A stretch of 40,310 nucleotides of DNA from a virus. The position numbers and the translations under genes are program-made. The stretch covers positions 1-40,310 of the IMG/VR virus record IMGVR_UViG_3300043496_000020; one strand, 5' to 3'. The notes beneath the pieces are model-generated. The model was not told the origin of the DNA, searched no databases, and saw only the letters and a program-made list of their open reading frames with translations. This document shows, one piece after another, positions 874-40,310 of the stretch. Each line of letters starts with the position of its first letter. Position 1 is the first letter of the stretch.

Positions 874-2301
874 GTGCCAACCCAGGTGATCAACCGCTTC
901 GTGCCGCAACCTAGTCAGGTGCCGTTCATCACGTCGCCGGCCGACATAACCGTGTTCGGCGGCGCCCGAGGCGGCGGCAAGACCTACGCCAGCCTGGGCG
1001 ATTTCTGGCTGCACTCCGAGATGCACGGCCTGCACGCCAAGGGCCTGATGCTGCGCAAGACCCGCGAGGATCTGAAGGACACCATCGCCACCGGCGTGCA
1101 GCTATTCGGCAACGCGGCAGAGTGGCGCCAGCACGACGGCCAGTTCTTCCAGTTCAAGAGCGGTGCGCGGCTCTATATGGCCTACCTCGAGAACGAGCGC
1201 GACGCCGAGCACTACCAGGGCTGGTCGCTCAGCCGGGTCTACATCGAGGAGCTGACGCAGTTCATGTCGCTGGCGCCGATGATGAAGCTGCTGGCAACGC
1301 TGCGATCGCCGACCGGCATCCGCTGCCAGCTCAAAGCCACATGCAACCCTGGCGGTCCTTCCCACTTCGCGGTCAAGCAACTGTTCATCGACGGCGGCCC
1401 GTTCCGCATCATCACCGACGCCGAGACCAACATCACCAGGGTGTTCATTCCGTCGAAGGTCAGCGACAACCCGGCACTGCTCAGGAACGATCCCAACTAC
1501 ATCAACCGCCTCAAGGCGGTCGGCTCGCCGGCGCTCGTTCGCGCATGGCTGGAGGGCGACTGGGACATCGTCGAGGGCTCGTTCTTCCCTGAGTTCAACC
1601 GCGAAAAGCATGTCATCCAACCGTTCCCGGTGCCGAACGAATGGATCAAATTTCGATCGATGGACTGGGGCAGCTCGACGCCGTTCTCGATCGGCTGGTG
1701 GGCGGTCGTGCAGGACGATTTCGAGCACGACAACCGCATCATCCCGAGATCCGCGATCGTCCGCTATCGCGAATATTACGGCGCCATGCCTGGGCATAAC
1801 AATGTCGGCCTGAGGCTGACCGCCGAGGAGGTCGCCCGCGAGATCGTCAAGCGCGAGACCGACGAACGCGGGCATCGTGAATATGTCGCTTATGGCGTGC
1901 TCGACCCCGCCGCCTTCAACGTCGTTTCCGGCCCGTCGATCGGCGAGACGCTCGGCCGCGGCGGCGCCGTCTTCCGCCGCGCCGACAATACCCGCGTCAG
2001 CCGCGATCGCCGCATGGGCGGCTGGGATCAGCTCCGCAACCGGCTGAAGGGCGACCTGGACGGGCGGCCGATGATGTATATGTTCAGCCACTGCCACGAC
2101 CTGATACGGACGATCGGCATGATGCAGGCTGATGCTCACAATCCCGAGGATCTCGACACCGACGGCGAGGACCACGCTGTCGACGACGCCCGCTATGCCT
2201 GCATGAGCCGGCCGTTCACGATGCGCCAGGAGGCGATGCGCGACCGCAACCCGCTGCTGGTCGCCAACGCCTTCAACTACAAGAAACTGGGGATCGAGTG
2301 A
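874..2301 (+). CDS. terL: Terminase large subunit
   Basis: Walker A FGGARGGGKT, Walker B-like RVYIEE, nuclease-type MDWGSSTPFS and DHAVDDARYA. The track ORF starts at 814 but that start overlaps the terminator hairpin, so GTG 874 is preferred. The exact start is uncertain. Confidence 0.9.
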   Translation: MPTQVINRFVPQPSQVPFITSPADITVFGGARGGGKTYASLGDFWLHSEMHGLHAKGLMLRKTREDLKDTIATGVQLFGNAAEWRQHDGQFFQFKSGARLYMAYLENERDAEHYQGWSLSRVYIEELTQFMSLAPMMKLLATLRSPTGIRCQLKATCNPGGPSHFAVKQLFIDGGPFRIITDAETNITRVFIPSKVSDNPALLRNDPNYINRLKAVGSPALVRAWLEGDWDIVEGSFFPEFNREKHVIQPFPVPNEWIKFRSMDWGSSTPFSIGWWAVVQDDFEHDNRIIPRSAIVRYREYYGAMPGHNNVGLRLTAEEVAREIVKRETDERGHREYVAYGVLDPAAFNVVSGPSIGETLGRGGAVFRRADNTRVSRDRRMGGWDQLRNRLKGDLDGRPMMYMFSHCHDLIRTIGMMQADAHNPEDLDTDGEDHAVDDARYACMSRPFTMRQEAMRDRNPLLVANAFNYKKLGIE

Positions 2302-4679
2302 TGGCGACCGACTACGAGATCACCAAGCCAGCGGTCGACGCCCCACCGTCCGACATGGGCAAGCCCGACCAGCAGCCCCAGGAAAACGACCCCTATGCCG
2401 GTGTCGACGGTGTCGACAAAGCCTACTGGATCAGTTGCCTGGACGACGCCGAGCGCACCGAGAAGGAGTGGCGCGCCAGGGGCCGCGAGATCATCCAGAT
2501 CTACCGCAACGAGACCAGTGCCGGGAAATCCAAGAAGGCCGGCGGTGAGACGACATTCAATATTCTGTACTCGAACACCGAGGTGATGGCAGGGGCGATC
2601 TACCAGCACCCCGCCAAGCCACTGGTGCGGTCGCGCTTCACCAGCGTCGAGAAGATGACGCCGATGCCGCCGCCGATGCCGATGGGCATGCCTGGGATGA
2701 TGGCGCCACCGCCAGGGATGCCGCCGATCGGCGCCTTGCCCGGTGGTCCGCCTCCCGGCATGCCGCCCCTGGGTGCGGAGCCAGCAGCCCCGCCGCCGAT
2801 GGGGCCGCCGCCGATGGGTATGCCCCTAAGCCCGCCCATCGGCGGCCCAGGAATGCCGCCTGAGGGTGGCATGGGAGGACCGCTGGGCGACCTTGGAGGC
2901 GCGACGGCGCCGATGATGGGTGCACCCAGCGGTCCACCGCCGTTTATGATGGGTCAGCTCCCGGCCGGCCCGAGCAAGCCGCTGCAAAGCGACATCGAGA
3001 CCGCCGCCAGCGTCATGCAGAAGGCGCTCGAGGTCGTGCAGGAGGACGATGCGTCGTCCGAGGCGATCAAGATGGCGATCAAGGACGTTTTGCTCCCAGG
3101 CAGAGGTCTGTGCCGCGTCCGCTGGAAGCCGCAGATGGAGAAGCGGCCGAAAAAGCCCGAGCCTGGGGAAGGCCCCGAGCTCGGCGCCGAGCCGATCGCC
3201 GGCATGGGCGACAACGGCGGCCCGCCGATGGAGGACGTGAAGGTCTGGGAGGAGACCACCGACGAATACGTCTATTGGGAGGACTTCCTCTGCGATGCGA
3301 CCCGCGCCGCGTCCGACATGGACTGGATCGCGTTCCGGCATCTGTTCACCAAGGAACAGACCGAACAGGAGTTCGCGGGCTCGCCGCAATACGACAAGAT
3401 GAAGAGCGAGAACCGGCTCGGCGAGCTGTTCCGATGGACCGACGAATCGGCCGCCAAGGCGCCTGTCGGCGGCGGGCCGGCACTGAAGAGCGCGAGCAAG
3501 CTCGGCGACCACGTCAAGAAGATGATGGCGTGGGAGATCTGGAGCCGCGTCAGCCGCGAGGTGATCTGGTTCGTGCGCGACGCCGGTGGCGTCGTCATGC
3601 GCGTCGACCCCGACGCCTACCAGCTCACCGGCTTCTATCCGACGCCGATGCCGATACTCGCGGTGACGACCACCGACACCAGGATTCCGCGCCCCTACTA
3701 TGATCTCTACGCCAAGCTGGCCGGCGATCTCGACGAGACCAGCGCCCGCATCAGCGCCCTGACCAAGAAGATCAAGGCGCGCGGCGCCTACAATTCGGCG
3801 AGCCGCGACATCGCCGATCTGCTGACCGCCGACGACGGTAAAATGATCCCGGTCGACGGCGTCGACATGCTCAACGGCGGCCTCCAGAACCACATCTGGA
3901 TGGTGCCGATCGAGATCTATGTGCAGGCGCTCCAGCAGCTCTACATGGCACGCGATCAGATCAAGCAGGCGATCTACGAGATCATGGGCATCTCGGACAT
4001 CATGCGCGGCGCCACCAGGGCGACCGAGACGGCGACGGCGCAGCGCATCAAGGGCTCGATGGGCATGTCGCGCCTGGAGGATCAGAAGGCAGCGGCCGCA
4101 AATTTCGCGCGCGATCTCCTGCGCATCAAGGCCGAGATCATCTGCAAGAATTTCGACGCCGAAACGCTCAGCCAGATGACCGGCGAGGACATCACCCCCA
4201 GCGTGATGGCGATCCTGCGCTCCGACTTCATGCGGATCTGCGCGATCGACATCGAGACCGATTCCACTGTCGTGCCGGATCTCCAGGCCGAGCAGCAAGG
4301 CATCGCGATGGTCATGCAGGCCGTGCAGATGGTCATGCAGGGCATCCAGGGCATGCTGATGACCGGCCTGATGCCGCCACAGCAAACCATCCAGCTCGGG
4401 CTCGAGCTGCTCAAGATGAGCCTGCACCCGGTGCCGTACAGCCGCGGCGTCGTGCAGCTCATCAACGACTTCCAGGCTCAGGTGAAGGCGATGCCGCAAG
4501 GCATGCCGATGGTGCCGCCGCCGCCGCCAGGGCCGCCGCCGCCGCAGGGCGCCGGCGCACCGCCGAACAAGCCGGGGGTTCCCGGCGTCGGGCCGCCGCC
4601 AGGGCGGCCGAACATCCCGCCGTCGGGCGTTTCCCGCTCCAATGGCGGTCCTCCACCCGCACCGCAAATGAACATCTGA
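2298..4679 (+). CDS. Portal (podovirus-type head-to-tail connector) with two Pro/Gly/Met-rich low-complexity segments
   Basis: 793 aa, ATGA-coupled directly after terL. Size, position and general sequence character fit a portal. Low-complexity segments are at nt 2655-2975 and 4491-4676. Confidence 0.75.
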   Translation: MMATDYEITKPAVDAPPSDMGKPDQQPQENDPYAGVDGVDKAYWISCLDDAERTEKEWRARGREIIQIYRNETSAGKSKKAGGETTFNILYSNTEVMAGAIYQHPAKPLVRSRFTSVEKMTPMPPPMPMGMPGMMAPPPGMPPIGALPGGPPPGMPPLGAEPAAPPPMGPPPMGMPLSPPIGGPGMPPEGGMGGPLGDLGGATAPMMGAPSGPPPFMMGQLPAGPSKPLQSDIETAASVMQKALEVVQEDDASSEAIKMAIKDVLLPGRGLCRVRWKPQMEKRPKKPEPGEGPELGAEPIAGMGDNGGPPMEDVKVWEETTDEYVYWEDFLCDATRAASDMDWIAFRHLFTKEQTEQEFAGSPQYDKMKSENRLGELFRWTDESAAKAPVGGGPALKSASKLGDHVKKMMAWEIWSRVSREVIWFVRDAGGVVMRVDPDAYQLTGFYPTPMPILAVTTTDTRIPRPYYDLYAKLAGDLDETSARISALTKKIKARGAYNSASRDIADLLTADDGKMIPVDGVDMLNGGLQNHIWMVPIEIYVQALQQLYMARDQIKQAIYEIMGISDIMRGATRATETATAQRIKGSMGMSRLEDQKAAAANFARDLLRIKAEIICKNFDAETLSQMTGEDITPSVMAILRSDFMRICAIDIETDSTVVPDLQAEQQGIAMVMQAVQMVMQGIQGMLMTGLMPPQQTIQLGLELLKMSLHPVPYSRGVVQLINDFQAQVKAMPQGMPMVPPPPPGPPPPQGAGAPPNKPGVPGVGPPPGRPNIPPSGVSRSNGGPPPAPQMNI

Positions 4680-4689
4680 GGAGGCTCAT

Positions 4690-4917
4690 ATGGCCAAGCA
4701 TAAAGATCTCGACGAGGACGACGGCAGCCGCGGCTACACCAAGCCGGCGCCCAAGGAAGTGCCGACGGCGACGACCACCACCGGCCTGCCCGCCGACGCC
4801 TACCTGACCGAGCAGGAGAAGGGGCCGGCAGATCCCGTCACCCCTCCTGTCGACCCGGTGCCGGCCGAGGTGCTCGACATCGCCAGGACGCAGCCATATC
4901 CGACGGCTGACAGCTAA
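4690..4917 (+). CDS. Acidic, Pro/Thr-rich small protein (75 aa)
   Basis: Strong RBS gaggagg before ATG 4690; track ORF. Confidence 0.6.
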   Translation: MAKHKDLDEDDGSRGYTKPAPKEVPTATTTTGLPADAYLTEQEKGPADPVTPPVDPVPAEVLDIARTQPYPTADS

Positions 4918-4927
4918 GGAGGCTCCA

Positions 4928-5491
4928 ATGGGCCAGAGATACCCCAGCCCGATCACCGCTGCGATGGTGAAGCCGGCCTATGTGCCGGTCTTCACCTATG
5001 ACGGCGGCGTTTATGGTGACGATGTCTACCTCTCCAAATCGGCCGTGCTGGTCGATGACCGAGGCATCGGCGACTACACGCCGCGCAACCAGGACGACAA
5101 GGCCAAGCTGCCGGGGGCCGTGCCGCCAAATGCGGTCGCAGGCGATCCTGATTACGTGATGGCGGTTGATGTCACGGCACCGCGCGGCTGGATCGGGCCG
5201 AGAGATCCGTATTCGAAGGCAATGCCGGCGGCGCCGACGATCGCCAGCCTTGCACCGAACACGGCGGTGGCAGGCAGCCCTGGTCCGCTGACAGTGGTTG
5301 TCACCGGCACCAACTTCACCCAGTGGACTAAGCTGCAAATCGGCGGCGCCGATGCGCAGAACGTGCAGTACGCAAGCCCGACCAAGATGGTGGTGCTGAT
5401 GCATCCAGAGGTGTCGGTTCCCGGCACCATTACGTTCATCGCCTGGGATCACAGCGTGGCAAGCGGCGCGGTCAACTTCACGTACACCTGA
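4928..5491 (+). CDS. Protein with a C-terminal IPT/TIG-like Ig-fold domain; possible capsid decoration or surface protein
   Basis: RBS aaggagg. The C-terminal region PTIASLAPNTAVAGSPGPLTVVVTGTNFT...GTITF...VNFTYT matches the IPT/TIG pattern I recall. Confidence 0.55.
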   Translation: MGQRYPSPITAAMVKPAYVPVFTYDGGVYGDDVYLSKSAVLVDDRGIGDYTPRNQDDKAKLPGAVPPNAVAGDPDYVMAVDVTAPRGWIGPRDPYSKAMPAAPTIASLAPNTAVAGSPGPLTVVVTGTNFTQWTKLQIGGADAQNVQYASPTKMVVLMHPEVSVPGTITFIAWDHSVASGAVNFTYT

Positions 5492-5498
5492 GGCGTCA

Positions 5499-5521
5499 AA
5501 ATTCGCGGTTTTCGCGAATTT
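5499..5521 (+). terminator. Perfect 9-bp hairpin (aaattcgcg/cgcgaattt, loop gtttt) just after the IPT-domain gene; terminator-like or regulatory
   Basis: Seen in sequence. The T-run is only the 3-prime end of the stem, so terminator function is uncertain. Confidence 0.35.
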
Positions 5522-5699
5522 CAGGAGCTGCACTGTAGTGGGTTGGAGGGTGGATCTGGTGAGAGCGCGAGCGAGGAGCTGGCGCCAGGAAATGGTCGAT
5601 CGCCTGGAAGCCTTTGCCGGCTTGAATCCCCAGGCGATCGGCGTCGGCACCGGCCCGATAAGAGGCGGTGAATTCTGGGTCAACAATAGGAGAAAGCGC

Positions 5700-5918
5700 A
5701 TGAATATCGGTGAAGCGGTGCAGAGCCTCAAGGAGGGCCACAAGGTCTCTCGCGAAGGCTGGAACGGCAAGGGCATGTGGTTGGAGCTGCAAATCCCCGA
5801 CGCGCACTCGAAGATGTCGCTGCCTTACGTCTACATGTCGACGGCGCAGGGCGATCTGGTGCCGTGGCTGTGCTCGCAGACGGATCTGCTGGCCGATGAT
5901 TGGGGAGTGGTGCAATGA
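5700..5918 (+). CDS. DUF2829-family protein (Thoeris anti-defence Tad2-like)
   Basis: AGGAG at 5688-5692 lies 7 nt before ATG 5700. Product is MNIGEAVQSLKEGHKVSREGWNGKGMWLEL...PWLCSQTDLLADDWGVVQ. The GWNGKGM and SQTDLLA-DW motifs are typical of DUF2829 as I recall it. Confidence 0.75.
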   Translation: MNIGEAVQSLKEGHKVSREGWNGKGMWLELQIPDAHSKMSLPYVYMSTAQGDLVPWLCSQTDLLADDWGVVQ

Positions 5919-6136
5919 CCAAGGGCGAATATCGCGTCGGCATCAATTTCAACCCGAGCGGCAATGAGATGGTCGACGCCATCAAGCGCGTCGGCGCCGA
6001 GGCGATCGACTACATCGAGACCATCCCCGACCAGGGCGAGGGCGAGATCCGCCGCCTGAAGGCGCAGGCGCAGACCGAGATCGAGAGTGCCTGCCACTGG
6101 GCGGTCAAGGCGGCGACCAAGCGGCCGATGGAATGA
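5915..6136 (+). CDS. Small helical protein, candidate Acb2/Tad1-hairpin-like nucleotide sponge (73 aa)
   Basis: ATGA coupling to the upstream gene. Product is MTKGEYRVGINFNPSGNEMVDAIKRVGAEAIDYIE...RRLKAQAQTEIESACHWAVKAATKRPME. The YRVG-FNPSG start and the WAVKA C-terminal helix resemble the family as I remember it; not verified. Confidence 0.45.
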   Translation: MTKGEYRVGINFNPSGNEMVDAIKRVGAEAIDYIETIPDQGEGEIRRLKAQAQTEIESACHWAVKAATKRPME

Positions 6137-6396
6137 TCACGCCGCGCGACACGCGACCGCCTCTGGCGGTCGCGATCAATTTCGAGACCGGCCTGCCGAT
6201 CACCGAACGGCAGCAAGTACATCTCGACGCCATCCGCGAGACCGGCGAGCGGCTGCTCGAGGCAATGCACTATGCTGAGGGCTCGATCGAGCCTGGAGAG
6301 CATCAGGAACACGTTTTCCAGACGCCGCGCATGCGGCGCGCGGCCGAGATGATCGAGGTCGCAATCATATTGGCCAGGAAGGCAGCACTCGAATGA
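6133..6396 (+). CDS. Diverged paralogue of the 5915..6136 product (87 aa)
   Basis: ATGA coupling. Shares the INF-x-(S/T)G start, a D-A-I-(K/R) first helix and an A-x-x-x-I-E-x-A-x-x-x-A-(V/R)-K-A-A C-terminal helix with the upstream protein. Confidence 0.4.
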   Translation: MITPRDTRPPLAVAINFETGLPITERQQVHLDAIRETGERLLEAMHYAEGSIEPGEHQEHVFQTPRMRRAAEMIEVAIILARKAALE

Positions 6397-6459
6397 GCAA
6401 CCCGGTCACACTGCCGCACATCACGATGCTGCACACGAACATCGATGCCAGGAGCCGCA

Positions 6460-6750
6460 ATGAGCGTCTACGTGATGAGAAACGGGAAGCTGATCGCAAA
6501 GCGAGACGCACCACCGACGCAGACCAGCCGGTCGACTTATCCCTGCCCGATGATCTCTCGGATCGAGGCGTTTGAATCGCCGATCACGGGCAAGGAGATC
6601 ACATCCTGGCGCGACCGCGACAGGGACATGGACGCCGCCGGCGCCGTAGATCCTCGAGATCTGCCGCGCAAGCCGTTCGAACAGCGAAAGAAGAAACGCC
6701 ATGAGCGATCAATCATCGAAGCCGCCGCAGCCATCGCCAGCGACAGTTGA
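6460..6750 (+). CDS. Conserved-looking small protein (96 aa)
   Basis: AGGAG at 6450-6454 lies 5 nt before ATG 6460, with high third-position GC. Product is MSVYVMRNGKLIAKRD...SPITGKEITSWRDRDRDM.... The 3-prime end overlaps the scaffold start by 50 nt. Confidence 0.55.
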   Translation: MSVYVMRNGKLIAKRDAPPTQTSRSTYPCPMISRIEAFESPITGKEITSWRDRDRDMDAAGAVDPRDLPRKPFEQRKKKRHERSIIEAAAAIASDS

Positions 6751-7900
6751 ACCGGCACCCGCACCGCGCTCCGTCAGGGAGGTCGCCGAAGCGGTTTACG
6801 ACGAGCTGCTGGACAGTGACGCAGCCGCTGACGAAACCACCGAAACGCCACCCGTTGACGAAACCGTCAGAGCGCGTGATGCTAGTGGCCGCTTCGTTGC
6901 CAGGGAAACGGCAGCGGAGCCGGGAGAAGCAGACGCGGTCGCAAAGCCCGTCCCAGCCCCGCCAGAAGTTCAAACCAGTGAAGAAAAGCCCGCTCAACCA
7001 GCTCCCGAACAGGGGAAGAGCATTGAGCTGCCGCCACACTGGCCTGAGGCAGATCGCAAGACATTCGGGGAACTGACACCGGGCGGCAAAGAGCTGTTCG
7101 TTCGTCGCTATTCCGAGATGGAGCGCGATTACACTCAGAAAACGCAGGCCGCTGCGCAAGCAGTCACTTTCGTGCAGACGGTCGCGCCGATCTTCCAGCA
7201 TCCGCAAATGGTGGAATCGCTGAAAACGGCGCAAGCCAGCCCGTCCGAGGCTATCGACCAATGGGCGCGCTTCCACCTGGGGATCATGCATCCAGATCCC
7301 CGCGTCAGGCTTGCCACCGTCCAGGAGATCGCGCGACGGGCGCAAATTGACCCAGCTACAGCGGCCCCAGGTCAGTCGGGCGCGCCGGCTCTCACAGCGG
7401 AAGAGCTCAAGCACCCGGCTATTCGTTTTCTCGCCGACACGCTCAGCAGAACGACACAGGAGCAACAGGCTTTACGCAGCCAATTTCAGGCGATGGTCAA
7501 CCAGCAGCAAGCCGAGAGGCAGACTGCTGTCCAAGGGGCGACGGAAGACTACGTCAATTCATTCGCTGAAGCGGTCGACGGCCAGGGGCGCAAGCTCCAT
7601 CCATATTTCGACCGCGTCATCGAGGAACTGAAAGAGTTGTTCCAGGCCAATCCCAAGCGGGACATGGCCGACGCCTACAAACGGGCATGTCGCATGAACG
7701 ACGCGGTCTACGAGGAGATGCAGCAAGCTGGGAGGCTCACCGCCGAGCAGCACGCCGCCAACCAAAGAGCCGCATTGGCTGCCAAGGGCAACATTCGCGG
7801 TCGGACGGCACCCGTCTCGACCACAGCGAATGGAGCCGGTGAAAAGAAGAGCCTGCGCGCTACCCTGGAAGCGGCTGCCGACGAGGCCGGCATCAATTAA
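6701..7900 (+). CDS. Scaffolding protein (putative)
   Basis: 399 aa, Ala/Glu/Gln-rich and apparently helical, located immediately upstream of the major capsid gene. Confidence 0.6.
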   Translation: MSDQSSKPPQPSPATVEPAPAPRSVREVAEAVYDELLDSDAAADETTETPPVDETVRARDASGRFVARETAAEPGEADAVAKPVPAPPEVQTSEEKPAQPAPEQGKSIELPPHWPEADRKTFGELTPGGKELFVRRYSEMERDYTQKTQAAAQAVTFVQTVAPIFQHPQMVESLKTAQASPSEAIDQWARFHLGIMHPDPRVRLATVQEIARRAQIDPATAAPGQSGAPALTAEELKHPAIRFLADTLSRTTQEQQALRSQFQAMVNQQQAERQTAVQGATEDYVNSFAEAVDGQGRKLHPYFDRVIEELKELFQANPKRDMADAYKRACRMNDAVYEEMQQAGRLTAEQHAANQRAALAAKGNIRGRTAPVSTTANGAGEKKSLRATLEAAADEAGIN

Positions 7901-7938: not shown

Positions 7939-8919
7939 ATGCCCGAGCCAATTGCTGGCATCACCAATCTGGTGACGACTACCATCAACAACTACCACAA
8001 GGAGTTCGCCGACAACGTCACGAACTCCAATGCGCTCACCGCCCTGCTCAAGATGAACGGCAGGACGCGCGTCGTCGAAGGCGGCAAGGTCATCAGCACG
8101 CCGCTCACCTACGCGGAGGAAACCTTCGCTTGGTACACCGGCACGGATCTCCTGAGCCGCGCCCTGAAGGAGACCATCTCCGAGGCGGACTATTCCCCCG
8201 CCAACGCGGTCGCCTCGCTCACCCTGGACGGCCCCACCCTCGCCAAGAACCGCTCGCGTGAACGCATCCTCAACTTGCTTGAGGGAAAAATGACGAACGC
8301 CGAGAACACGATGTCGAACAACGTCACGAAGGCTGTCTATGGCGACGGCACCGTGGCCAAATCGTTCGTCGGACTGAAGGCGATGGTGTCACCGACTGGC
8401 GGTGGCATCGTCGGCGGCATCGACAGCGGCACCTGGACGTTCTGGAAGAACCAGACCCAGGACGTGGTCCGCGCTACCGGCCTGCAATATCCGGCCCTCA
8501 AGGCCGCGATGAACGCGCTGTGGCTGAAGCTGACCCGCGGCACCGAGCATCCCGACCTGATCACCGCCGACGGCGAGGTCTATTCGACCTACGAGAGCGG
8601 GCTCCAGGAAAATCAGCGCTATGCCGACGCCAAGCTCGGCAGCCTGGGTTTCGAGACGCTGAAATACAAGCAGGCGGCGATCGTCTACGACAGCCCTGCA
8701 ACCGGGCTCGGCTCGGCGCCCGCGACCAACCCCGGCGCCTTCTATCTCAACACCAAATACCTCAAGTTCGAGATCTATAGCGGCTACAATTTCGAGCAGC
8801 TCGATCTCCCCGAAAAGACCCCCGACATGGACGCCATCACCCGGCATATCGGGTTCATGGGAACGCTCACCCTGGCCAATCGTGCGCTCCAGGGCCGGCT
8901 GACGCTGTCGGGCGCCTGA
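7939..8919 (+). CDS. Major capsid protein
   Basis: 326 aa with RBS aggag. It follows the scaffold gene and is followed by a strong terminator, the usual layout for high capsid expression. Confidence 0.75.
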   Translation: MPEPIAGITNLVTTTINNYHKEFADNVTNSNALTALLKMNGRTRVVEGGKVISTPLTYAEETFAWYTGTDLLSRALKETISEADYSPANAVASLTLDGPTLAKNRSRERILNLLEGKMTNAENTMSNNVTKAVYGDGTVAKSFVGLKAMVSPTGGGIVGGIDSGTWTFWKNQTQDVVRATGLQYPALKAAMNALWLKLTRGTEHPDLITADGEVYSTYESGLQENQRYADAKLGSLGFETLKYKQAAIVYDSPATGLGSAPATNPGAFYLNTKYLKFEIYSGYNFEQLDLPEKTPDMDAITRHIGFMGTLTLANRALQGRLTLSGA

Positions 8920-39287: not shown

Positions 39288-40283
39288 ATGAATAAGGGCA
39301 TTTCCTTGCAGGCACTGGCCGCCGAGATCGAGCGCCAGGACGACGCCAAGCACGACATGATCGCCGACACCGGCGCCGTGACCATGCACGACATGGAGGG
39401 CGCTTTCTCCCTGGCGGTCGCCGATGAGGATTTCGGCATCAACCAGACCGCCCACAGCCAGATCGCGGCTCGCCTGGGCATCCCGCTCAAATACTACGAT
39501 CGCATGCAGGCCGAGGCGCCTTCGATGCTGTCGTACAACGTCAATGAGTGGTTTCGCAGGAAACCCGAGCGCCGCATGATCAGGACACTCGACGGCAACG
39601 TGCGGGCGTTCCTGAGCGATCGATATCAGCGCATCGACAACTGGGACATCAGCAAGGCGGCGCTGCCGGTCCTGGCCAAGATCCCCGAGCTCAAGATCGT
39701 CTCATCGCAGATCACCGAGCACCGCATGTACATCCAGGCGGTGACGGCGCGGCTGACCGAGAACGTCGCCCTGAACGACGCCGTGCAGGCCGGCGTCATC
39801 ATCTCCAACTCGGAGATCGGCATGGGCTCGGTGTCGGTCGCCCCGATCGTCTACCGTCTCAAATGCCTGAACGGCATGGTCATCGCCGATCAGAAATACC
39901 GGGCGATGCACGTCGGCCGCCGCATCGAAGACTCGGCCGAGCTGTGGGCCGACGATACCCGGCAGGCCGACGACCGGGCGGTGCTGCTGAAGGTCCGCGA
40001 CATGATCGCCAAGGCGGTCGATGCCGTGAACTTCCGCGAGAACGTCGAGCGCATGCAGGGTCTGGTGCGCGAGAGCGTCACCGGCAACCCGATCAAGGTG
40101 GTCGAGGTGCTGTCGAAGCGCCTGGGCATCACCGAGGCCGAGCAGGGCGGCATCCTGCGCTCGTTGATCGAGGGCGGCGACCTCTGTCGGCGTGGGGCGT
40201 GCTCAACGCGGTCACCGCCCAGGCCCACGGCGCCGAGTACGATCGTGCGGTCGAGTTCGAGGCGGCCGGCGGCCAGCTCCTGA
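39288..40283 (+). CDS. DUF932-family protein. The frame is credible up to 40181; the conserved C-terminus continues in another frame (40184 onward, equal to 1..144), so the gene is frameshifted as assembled.
   Basis: RBS aggag. LRTLDGNVRAFLSDRYQRIDNWD and GVIISNSEIGMGSVSVAPIVYRLKCLNGM are typical DUF932 blocks. After ...LIEGGDL the track frame becomes the Arg/Ser/Pro-rich CRRGACSTRSPP.... Confidence 0.8.
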   Translation: MNKGISLQALAAEIERQDDAKHDMIADTGAVTMHDMEGAFSLAVADEDFGINQTAHSQIAARLGIPLKYYDRMQAEAPSMLSYNVNEWFRRKPERRMIRTLDGNVRAFLSDRYQRIDNWDISKAALPVLAKIPELKIVSSQITEHRMYIQAVTARLTENVALNDAVQAGVIISNSEIGMGSVSVAPIVYRLKCLNGMVIADQKYRAMHVGRRIEDSAELWADDTRQADDRAVLLKVRDMIAKAVDAVNFRENVERMQGLVRESVTGNPIKVVEVLSKRLGITEAEQGGILRSLIEGGDLCRRGACSTRSPPRPTAPSTIVRSSSRRPAASS

Positions 40284-40310
40284 CGCTCGATCGCAAGGAA
40301 TGGTCGCGCA
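40184..40310. repeat. Terminal direct repeat, copy 2 of 2 (identical to 1..127)
   Basis: Exact 127-nt identity with the window start, read by eye. Confidence 0.95.

Follow-up and report, generated by a model that had tools for sequence, protein, structure and literature searches.

The window, as the stretch of DNA analysed here is called, is the whole of IMG/VR virus record IMGVR_UViG_3300043496_000020 (positions 1 to 40,310; 40,310 nucleotides). It is taken to be a complete phage genome because it carries an exact 127-bp direct terminal repeat (1-127 = 40184-40310), and it represents a soil phage of about 40.2 kb and 64% G+C. Three consecutive small genes, g1, g2 and g3, lie between a gene for a TIG (Ig-like) domain protein and a putative scaffold gene. 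It is probable, if far from assured, that they mark a counter-defence hot spot in the operon for head morphogenesis of this non-T7-like phage, in which g1 (Tad2-like) and g2 (Acb2-type) are an accessory pair and g3 is a divergent relative. A sequence-only reading of the window had already picked out three tightly coupled small genes at these positions, and the coupling is borne out: g1 and g2, and likewise g2 and g3, are joined by an ATGA start/stop overlap. The features of the locus itself are as follows.

5538-5699, + strand: probable N-terminal extension of g1, reading MGWRVDLVRARAR + SWRQEMVDRLEAFAGLNPQAIGVG + a variable tail

5700-5918, + strand: g1, a 72-residue Tad2-like protein (DUF2829; PF11195), with a possible long form at 5538-5918 of 126 residues

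5915-6136, + strand: g2, a 73-residue Acb2-type hairpin protein (PF24729)

6133-6396, + strand: g3, an 87-residue divergent member of the Acb2/Tad1 hairpin family (PF24729 at family level)

Profile and pairwise matching identify g1 as a full-length, minimal Tad2/DUF2829 domain protein, as had been proposed from its DUF2829 signature (GWNGKGMW...PWLCSQTDLLADDW). The match to PF11195 runs from end to end (profile positions 1-73 of 73; 92.9 bits against a cut-off of 25; E = 1.8e-26), and a phmmer search of PDB sequences finds five solved Tad2 proteins: SptTad2 (8wjd, 3.3e-16), Tad2 8v3e and MoTad2 9eib (1.1e-14 each), HgmTad2/AcrIIA7 (8kbi, 1.4e-14) and SPO1 gp34.65 (2.6e-12). The residues that contact glycocyclic ADP-ribose (gcADPR) have been listed for HgmTad2, in which the changes W21A/N22A and S90A/T92A/D93A abolish binding (10.1101/2023.11.15.567273). 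In the HMMER alignment, HgmTad2 W21, N22, G23, M76, V84, W87, L88, S90, T92 and D93 are identical in g1, and the eight mutation-validated pocket residues become W21, N22, G23, W56, L57, S59, T61 and D62 in g1 numbering. Two contacts differ, A78 (T48 in g1) and T82 (D52 in g1). HgmTad2 also has a cyclic-dinucleotide pocket, built by an insertion between strands 2 and 5 (10.1101/2023.11.15.567273). This insertion is about 10 residues long in g1 (32-41), as against 24 in SPO1 Tad2 and 41 in HgmTad2, and HgmTad2 R31, S47, F70 and N85 have no counterpart in g1. The insertion domain is a trait of the HgmTad2/SptTad2 subclass rather than a requirement for Tad2 membership; because the part that binds cyclic dinucleotides is absent, g1 is predicted to keep the ADP-ribose-signal pocket only.

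The second gene is likewise placed by its profile match, as an Acb2-type hairpin protein. It matches PF24729 (Acb2_Tad1_hairpin) over profile positions 4-57 of 58 at 39.5 bits (cut-off 27; E = 6.7e-10), and of its 433 homologues at E <= 0.01 all 120 that were listed carry the same domain. The AlphaFold2 (AF2) model has a mean predicted local distance difference test score (pLDDT) of 94.8 and consists of a short N-terminal helix (3-8) and two long antiparallel ones (18-35 and 43-68). When the founding Acb2 proteins, those of JBD67 and PaMx33, are aligned with g2 and its relatives, g2 K24, R47 and A50 fall in invariant columns with PaMx33 Acb2 K26, R67 and A70, and g2 T54 aligns with T74; across the g2 family each of the four is either invariant or conserved to at least 90%. 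In Acb2, stacking by Y11 and a salt bridge from K26 serve cyclic dinucleotides, and R67, A70 and T74 belong to the cyclic-trinucleotide pocket (PMC10312549). The equivalent of Y11 in g2 is either Y6 or F12, both invariant, and the alignment decides for neither. Sequence searches of the PDB with g2, g3 and their family profiles returned insignificant matches only, the best for the g2 profile being Acb2_43 (E = 0.67), with the solved Acb2 chains at E 0.67-1.2.

The membership of g3 in the Acb2/Tad1 hairpin family is firm at the level of the family, judged from its relatives. (Here and below, P-numbered names are homologous proteins and L-numbered names are comparison loci or contigs.) The g3 family comprises 19 close proteins in a search of 5.8 billion sequences and 37 representatives among 1.84 billion proteins. 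PF24729 is matched by 14 of the 19 close relatives and by 22 of 38 representatives, at best with E = 1.3e-10, and four syntenic orthologues (P0007, which is 71% identical to g3, P0008, P0011 and P0268) score above the 27-bit cut-off across profile positions 4-55 of 58, which span both helices. The earlier suggestion that both proteins resemble Acb2/Tad1 thus holds for g2 by itself, above the PF24729 cut-off, and for g3 through its orthologues, not alone. Because BLASTP gave no alignment between g2 and g3, their paralogy was tested with profiles. In hhalign the g3-family alignment (A3) matches the g2-family alignment (A2) with 87.8% probability and E = 3.3e-6, and another g3-to-g2 family test (A1 against A2) gives E = 4.7e-4; the g3-family hidden Markov model cross-matches g2-family open reading frames (ORFs) at about 1e-6. 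The description of g2 and g3 as diverged paralogues therefore stands for the families and not for the pair as such. The shared strings that had prompted it are present (DAIK and WAVKAATK in g2, DAIR and ILARKAALE in g3), as is an INF start in both, the spacing of which is off by one (INFNPSG in g2, INFETG in g3), so that the common INF-x-x-G pattern originally described is not exact.

The AF2 model of g3 (pLDDT 84) has helices at 25-49 and 65-86. The family signature consists of an N-terminal PRD, an MHxAEGS motif ending helix 1, R66-M67 and A70; H46 is at least 90% conserved, G50 is invariant, and a PGEHQEH loop is invariant in the close subset. At the start of helix 2 the family divides into two coordinated types, RRMxIAAT in most members and PRM[RK]RAA[ED] (g3 residues 65-72) in the window, P0002, P0004, P0009, P0013 and P0018. 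The switch between them falls at the equivalents of R67 and T74 of the Acb2 trinucleotide pocket. A separate observation concerns the DNA: the 5' end of g3 contains a 10-bp perfect hairpin (6152-6174; CGCGACCGCC TCT GGCGGTCGCG), which was not seen in L001 or L007, the relatives in which this part of g3 was read. A sub-threshold Rfam match to c4-a1b1 lies over this non-conserved hairpin (E = 0.21, from a scan of 5300-6500) and is put down to chance.

The combination of a Tad2-like with an Acb2-like gene recurs elsewhere. Among 80 IMG/VR loci with a g2 homologue, a Tad2-like gene was sought within 3 kb and found in seven; in six of these the genes adjoin or overlap each other and share a strand, and in L098 about 280 nt separate them. 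Both gene orders occur. The contig encoding P0023, which is 74% identical to g2, has an abutting pair just upstream of terminase-sized and portal genes. In another phage group (L050 and L069/71) the pair has the order of the window and follows a large ORF in the portal position and a Cpn10-like ORF, ahead of the head genes; the portal position is assigned there from the matching Cpn10-Tad2 group. In sister contigs L014-L017 the portal/Cpn10 surroundings recur, with a Tad2-like gene (5001-5219) and no Acb2-like one. Throughout the L014-L017/L050/L069 group this gene encodes 72-80 residues, comes after the Cpn10 (GroES)-like gene and lies between portal and capsid genes. The blastn alignments of the window with L069 and L050 cross the g1/g2 junction, which suggests that the pair moves as a unit, and its recurrence suggests a mobile two-gene cassette. 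A separate g3-family gene was found in none of the 80 loci, and the stack of three is so far unique to this genome.

The surroundings of g3 were compared in about 45 related contigs, made up of contigs encoding g3 homologues and scanned metagenome contigs. The genes that frame the locus in the window are the following.

814-2301, + strand: large terminase (TerL)

2298-4679, + strand: portal (phrog_12082, 1.5e-113)

between the portal and TIG-domain genes, + strand: 75-residue gene

4928-5491, + strand: TIG/Ig-like domain gene (PF01833, 6e-6), the upstream edge of the variable slot

6460-6750, + strand: 96-residue gene between g3 and the putative scaffold

6701-7900, + strand: putative scaffold, 399 residues, named from its position alone, with no family match

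7939-8919, + strand: major head protein (phrog_9953, 1e-74)

Across the related contigs the order is portal, 75-residue gene, TIG gene, g3, 96-residue gene, putative scaffold and major head protein. TIG-like matches of 30-78% identity occupy the same position in most of them (39-49% for the orthologues in four loci compared in detail), and the 96-residue gene is kept wherever its position is covered (about 35 contigs); in all four compared loci its orthologues are 62-73% identical and start at the residue encoded at 6460. The variation lies on either side of g3. The upstream slot, whose insertion point is marked by the 3' end of the TIG-domain gene (stop at 5489-5491), holds five kinds of cargo, among them a g2 homologue (L005/L006 and L106/L107 only), g1 with g2 (the window only, g1 being found in this genome alone), an unrelated 103-residue gene (L120/L123) and a 131-residue acidic gene (L136/L137). 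The downstream slot holds at least three kinds: a 'IPFMDVPGSDPSA' family of 62-85 residues, a HAD-like gene (L134) and a 76-residue gene (L010). Members of the first of these are lysine-rich (..IPFMDVPGSDPSAxMKxDNAQFVKGST..; L113 3767-3955, L124 3746-4003, L127 598-795 and, after its g3 homologue, L126), and the small downstream genes in general could, by association, be further counter-defence candidates.

Both flanks of g3 thus show the pattern of a gene-acquisition hot spot. The features by which anti-defence hot spots are recognized, namely variable cargo, conserved flanks and Tad2- or Acb2-like cargo, occur together here, the last in the window, L005/6 and L106/7. The proposal of an inserted island of three genes accordingly survives for two of them: g1 and g2 behave as indels, and g3 is fixed in the clade. 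The accompanying premise, that nothing lies between portal and scaffold in a T7-like gene order, does not fit this phage on either count. In the relatives examined the 75-residue, TIG, g3 and 96-residue genes are found in that interval, and the genome is not T7-like in order: TerL, portal, head, tail, helicase, PolA and primase genes are all on the + strand, and no RNA polymerase match was found among the large ORFs scanned. The series of relatives, from no cargo to an Acb2-like gene and then to a Tad2-like plus an Acb2-like gene, amounts to a natural experiment on the gain of sponges.

In the arrangement proposed here, the slot between the TIG-domain gene and g3 would hold the accessory pair, g1 followed by g2, and g1 to g3 would be made from the late head transcript along with the portal and capsid proteins, since the ATGA overlaps chain them together. 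The product of g1 would be a Tad2-like tetramer that sequesters ADP-ribose-derived signals of the gcADPR class, made by Toll/interleukin-1 receptor (TIR) proteins, through W21/N22/G23 and W56/L57/S59/T61/D62. That of g2 may be an Acb2-like hexamer, which would take cyclic dinucleotides through Y6/F12 and K24 and cyclic trinucleotides through R47, A50 and T54. The g3 protein is predicted to have the same hairpin scaffold with remodelled pockets, and may either sequester some other signal or have been recruited to a different function. The analysis shows the gene structure, the family memberships, the conserved pocket residues of g1 and g2, the synteny and indel pattern and the recurrence of the pair; from these we infer the oligomeric state, ligand binding, expression timing and anti-defence effect of the putative sponge genes. 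Staphylococcal Thoeris TIR proteins are reported to sense phage capsids (PMC12578639); given this and the presence of JBD67 acb2 in a head module, co-expression of sponges with head genes is plausible. If the proposal is right, one small soil phage bears sponges for both TIR-derived (Thoeris-type) and cGAS-like signals, the latter of the kind used by cyclic-oligonucleotide-based anti-phage signalling systems (CBASS), in a single coupled block.

Several results weigh against this reading. The g3 gene occupies the same head-module slot in all of the roughly 45 related contigs, which is unusual for accessory anti-defence cargo, and in most of these its start codon overlaps or adjoins the TIG stop (by ATGA where the junction was read). 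In four loci its identity to the window (54-71%) is comparable to that of the 96-residue gene (62-73%), the putative scaffold (44-58%) and the head protein (74-95%), so that its divergence roughly keeps pace with that of the structural genes beside it. Because of this constant position and divergence in step, g3 is best regarded as a fixed gene of the clade and not as inserted cargo. By itself it has no match in Pfam (E <= 1), PHROGs, NCBIfam or the PDB, and no relative of it was found in 185,579 bacterial and archaeal species genomes, which gave no clue to the host either. At the pocket, the Arg and Thr of the family consensus and of Acb2 (R67/T74) are replaced in g3 by P65 and E72, the family varies at the position of Acb2 K26 (R35 in g3), and neither a Tyr nor any other aromatic residue is conserved. 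Foldseek found no match at E <= 0.001 when the AF2 models of g2 and g3 were compared with the PDB and that of g3 with BFVD; T4 Vs.4 came at rank 2 for g2 (an insignificant E of 2.3, template modelling score 0.56) and at rank 40 for g3. The Foldseek results are used in neither direction, as helical hairpins match many unrelated helical proteins. Finally, the ligands of the better-placed families are themselves diverse: Tad2 homologues take 3'-cyclic ADP-ribose (3'cADPR), His-ADPR, N7-cADPR, cUMP (at other interfaces) or cyclic dinucleotides, some Acb2 homologues take 3'cADPR in place of cyclic dinucleotides (10.1101/2025.08.24.671296), and HgmTad2 was first reported as the anti-CRISPR AcrIIA7 (10.1101/2023.11.15.567273). 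Because these ligands differ so widely, specificity cannot be read from family membership.

It may be, then, that only g1 and g2 are counter-defence cargo, and that g3 is a head-morphogenesis or core protein of shared hairpin ancestry that does not sequester signals. The fixed and mostly ATGA-coupled position, the divergence that tracks structural genes, the tiny, clade-restricted family and the loss of Acb2 pocket residues all speak for such a role, which is unlikely without being far-fetched. Against it, g3 has well-supported homology to a family whose characterized members are all signal sponges, and variable small genes, bona fide sponge-family genes among them, gather on both of its flanks. 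Acb2 itself lies in the head module of JBD67. Moreover, polar or charged positions stay strongly conserved in the family (H46 and, in the close subset, PGEHQEH and R66); they adjoin the equivalent of the Acb2 trinucleotide pocket, and together with the coordinated switch between the two types this looks like the remodelling of a pocket. That g3 is a hairpin-family oligomer with a remodelled pocket, serving as a sponge for a different signal, is accordingly put forward as a tentative proposal, which we rate at somewhat less than an even chance. It nevertheless makes g3 a ready candidate in the search for new sponge specificities.

The interval ahead of g1 had been described as a 177-nt spacer; it is instead probably coding, as an N-terminal extension of g1. 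A frame opens at GTG 5538 and runs into g1 to give 126 residues, 54 codons of which (5538-5699) form the extension, and the GTG is preceded by AGGAG at 5523-5527 and an in-frame TAG at 5535-5537. This TAG rules out, in the window, readthrough or frameshifting from the TIG gene into the extension. Its modules are kept in relatives with mostly synonymous changes. In L005, MGWRVDLVRARAR directly follows the TIG-like gene in frame with the g2 homologue; 13 of 13 residues are those of the window, and past the initiator codon 10 of 12 codons differ, synonymously only. The same leader (MGWRMDLARAR) precedes the Tad2 domain in the unrelated locus L060, starting on the stop codon of the upstream gene. 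L106/L107 carry an SWRQ..DRL..F.GLNPQAIGVG module, identical at 17 of 24 residues, that begins on the TIG stop codon and continues in frame into the g2 homologue. More generally, the modules MGWRxDLxRAR, SWRQ..DRL..GLNPQAIGVG, KQTVPxMxH and SPWEPPRGLRTWNDD occur fused in frame to Tad2- or Acb2-like domains in differing contexts (window 5538-5699, L005 1603-1659, L060 from 2389, L107 262-396) and mostly start on or beside an upstream stop codon. The extension has no family match, and a pattern search of IMG/VR for the leader peptide found nothing.

The contrary view, that 5492-5699 is a non-coding regulatory spacer with a hairpin and a promoter or processing site and that g1 starts only at ATG 5700, can draw on the homologues of g1. 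There are at least 2,094, and among those listed most are 71-77 residues long and align to the last 72 residues only; ATG 5700 is preceded by a good Shine-Dalgarno sequence (AGGAG), and the in-frame GC content at third codon positions (GC3) of the extension is only 0.72. The region also folds somewhat better than shuffled sequences (z = -2.1 for 5489-5702) and contains two perfect inverted repeats. Yet the frame is open from a GTG with a Shine-Dalgarno sequence of its own, the leader and the SWRQ module are conserved as protein in other loci and joined in frame to other sponge domains, and scans of the region gave neither a sigma-70-like promoter nor a terminator nor an Rfam family, so that a purely regulatory spacer is rather improbable. 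Given the Shine-Dalgarno sequence of ATG 5700 and the 72-residue homologues, it may be that both the 72- and the 126-residue forms are made.

One of the inverted repeats is the 9-bp perfect hairpin at 5499-5521 (+ strand; arms AAATTCGCG / CGCGAATTT), which was correctly reported and has a 5-nt loop. It follows the TIG-gene stop (5489-5491) and precedes the Shine-Dalgarno sequence that would serve the long form of g1; relatives do not have it, their TIG stop overlapping or directly adjoining the start that comes next. The window contains seven loci with perfect stems of at least 9 bp (15 nested matches, as against about 2.7 matches in first-order Markov simulations), and the hairpin is statistically unremarkable and weak evidence when taken alone. 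Since no U-tract follows, it is not a typical terminator, and a scan of 4600-7100 for promoters and terminators gave no site on the + strand and no sigma-70-like promoter; it may be an RNA processing or stability site, or an insertion scar. The other repeat, 11 bp and perfect (5597-5607 / 5630-5640; CGATCGCCTGG / CCAGGCGATCG, 22-nt loop), lies inside the extension, where it encodes DRL and QAIG. It also occurs in L107, and might be an RNA element superimposed on the coding sequence. The Rfam scan of 5300-6500 gave no family other than the one sub-threshold match mentioned above.

As to its role, the extension may act as a functional tag at the N-terminus, as a linker whose translation holds ribosomes on the operon mRNA, or in part as an RNA element. 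It is conceivable, though decidedly speculative, that the modules are a functional tag on whichever sponge domain comes first after the structural gene and that g3 represents a new specificity class. Such a tag may direct the sponge into the procapsid, so that a pre-made sponge is delivered with the DNA, or may control assembly or turnover; a plainer alternative is that the modules are merely a translated linker. In the same proposal g3, fixed in its clade, may be an Acb2-type sponge whose pocket is rich in His (MHxAEGS..PGEHQEH, R66) and whose synthesis would coincide with that of the capsid proteins by which signalling defences are triggered.

Action outside Thoeris and CBASS, with g1 as an AcrIIA7-like anti-CRISPR or the set buffering housekeeping nucleotides such as cyclic di-GMP (c-di-GMP), is very improbable: HgmTad2 and AcrIIA7 are the same protein, which has picomolar affinity for c-di-GMP (10.1101/2023.11.15.567273), and unexpected ligands are found among Tad2 and Acb2 homologues, but c-di-GMP binding in Tad2 needs the long insertion domain that g1 is without, and 65 of 84 Tad2, Tad1 and Acb2 homologues screened inhibited at least one signalling defence system (10.1101/2025.08.24.671296).

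Some further features of the genome deserve mention. All of the large genes are on the + strand; the major head protein is followed by tail genes, a helicase, a family-A DNA polymerase (PolA) and a primase. The terminal repeat means either that the genome is terminally redundant or that it was assembled from a circle. Among GenBank phages, blastn matched the DUF2829 gene alone, in Mycobacterium phages at about 75%, and gave no close cultured relative. PHROGs gave only unannotated families, and NCBIfam has no family for g1, g2 or g3. The TIG-domain protein also matches the NCBIfam 'choice-of-anchor Z' (CoaZ) repeat (9.6e-10) and may be an Ig-like head decoration or fibre protein. The portal is unusual for such a protein in having a long Pro/Met/Gly-rich low-complexity segment (PMPPPMPMGMPGMMAPPPGMPP..., at about residues 110-235) and a Pro-rich tail in its C-terminal 70 residues, both of which are also present in L113, L117 and L122. 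The 96-residue gene has a Shine-Dalgarno sequence (AGGAG) upstream, overlaps the start of the putative scaffold by 50 nt, contains FESPxTGKEITSWRxRDRDM..DPRDLP and matches no known family. An ORF at 6393-6575 ('g4', 60 residues), which shares an ATGA overlap with the g3 stop, is regarded as spurious; it is probably no gene because it has no homologue in four related loci, has a lower GC3 and overlaps the conserved 6460-6750 gene.

The closest known systems to g1 are the Tad2 proteins (SPO1 gp34.65, HgmTad2/AcrIIA7, SptTad2 and MoTad2), which it resembles in the gcADPR residues of its GWNG and W-L-x-S-x-T-D motifs. It differs from them as a minimal 72-residue form without the cyclic-dinucleotide pocket, in probably also having a 126-residue form with a clade-specific N-terminal extension, and in sitting in a head operon. 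Like the Acb2 proteins (PaMx33 ORF24, JBD67 gp34, T4 Vs.4 and Acb2_43), g2 has the PF24729 domain, the predicted helices and the equivalents of K26, R67, A70 and T74, and JBD67 acb2 lies in the head module as g2 does. It is shorter, at 73 residues compared with 93-108, and is without the extra helices between the two hairpin helices. More distant from Acb2 is g3, with its long His-rich loop between the helices, its PRD N-terminus and its changed pocket positions. The hairpin domain matched by g2 and by the g3 orthologues is the one common to Acb2 and Tad1. In Tad1 it is the C-terminal region, beyond the hairpin, that holds gcADPR; g2 (73 residues) and g3 (87 residues) have no such region, and their lengths fit Acb2-like proteins.

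As regards the locus, Mu-like Pseudomonas phages provide one parallel, with an anti-CRISPR locus inside the head operon that has its own promoter and an aca regulator. Putative counter-defence genes are likewise placed in a structural operon here; a separate promoter and an aca regulator were not detected. The Acb2, Tad1 and Tad2 families are functionally diverse according to a screen of 84 homologues, in which no mention of adjacent sponge genes was found (10.1101/2025.08.24.671296). The stacked arrangement had been thought undescribed, but anti-defence islands have been published (NAR 2024, PMC11724313), and N4-like Pseudomonas phages have a hot spot with three adjacent anti-signalling genes (Acb4-Sequestin, Bes1 and Bes2), including a fused double sponge (10.64898/2026.06.04.730250). 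The present locus is like these in its adjacent small genes of predicted anti-signalling function, variable slot with conserved bounds, varying cargo and sponge fusions. The families differ, being Tad2 and two Acb2-type proteins here, and so does the place: the slot lies in the late head operon, from the Ig-like-domain gene to the scaffold region, whereas that of the N4-like phages runs from the replication genes to the virion RNA polymerase. One of the three genes (g3) is moreover fixed in the clade. The Tad2 and Acb2 families, stacked anti-signalling genes and anti-defence islands are thus already known, and the practical value of the locus is mainly as a guide to choosing proteins for testing. 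What is new in comparison is the gene combination, its place in the late head operon, the clade-fixed diverged Acb2-type gene beside the hot spot and the conserved leader modules.

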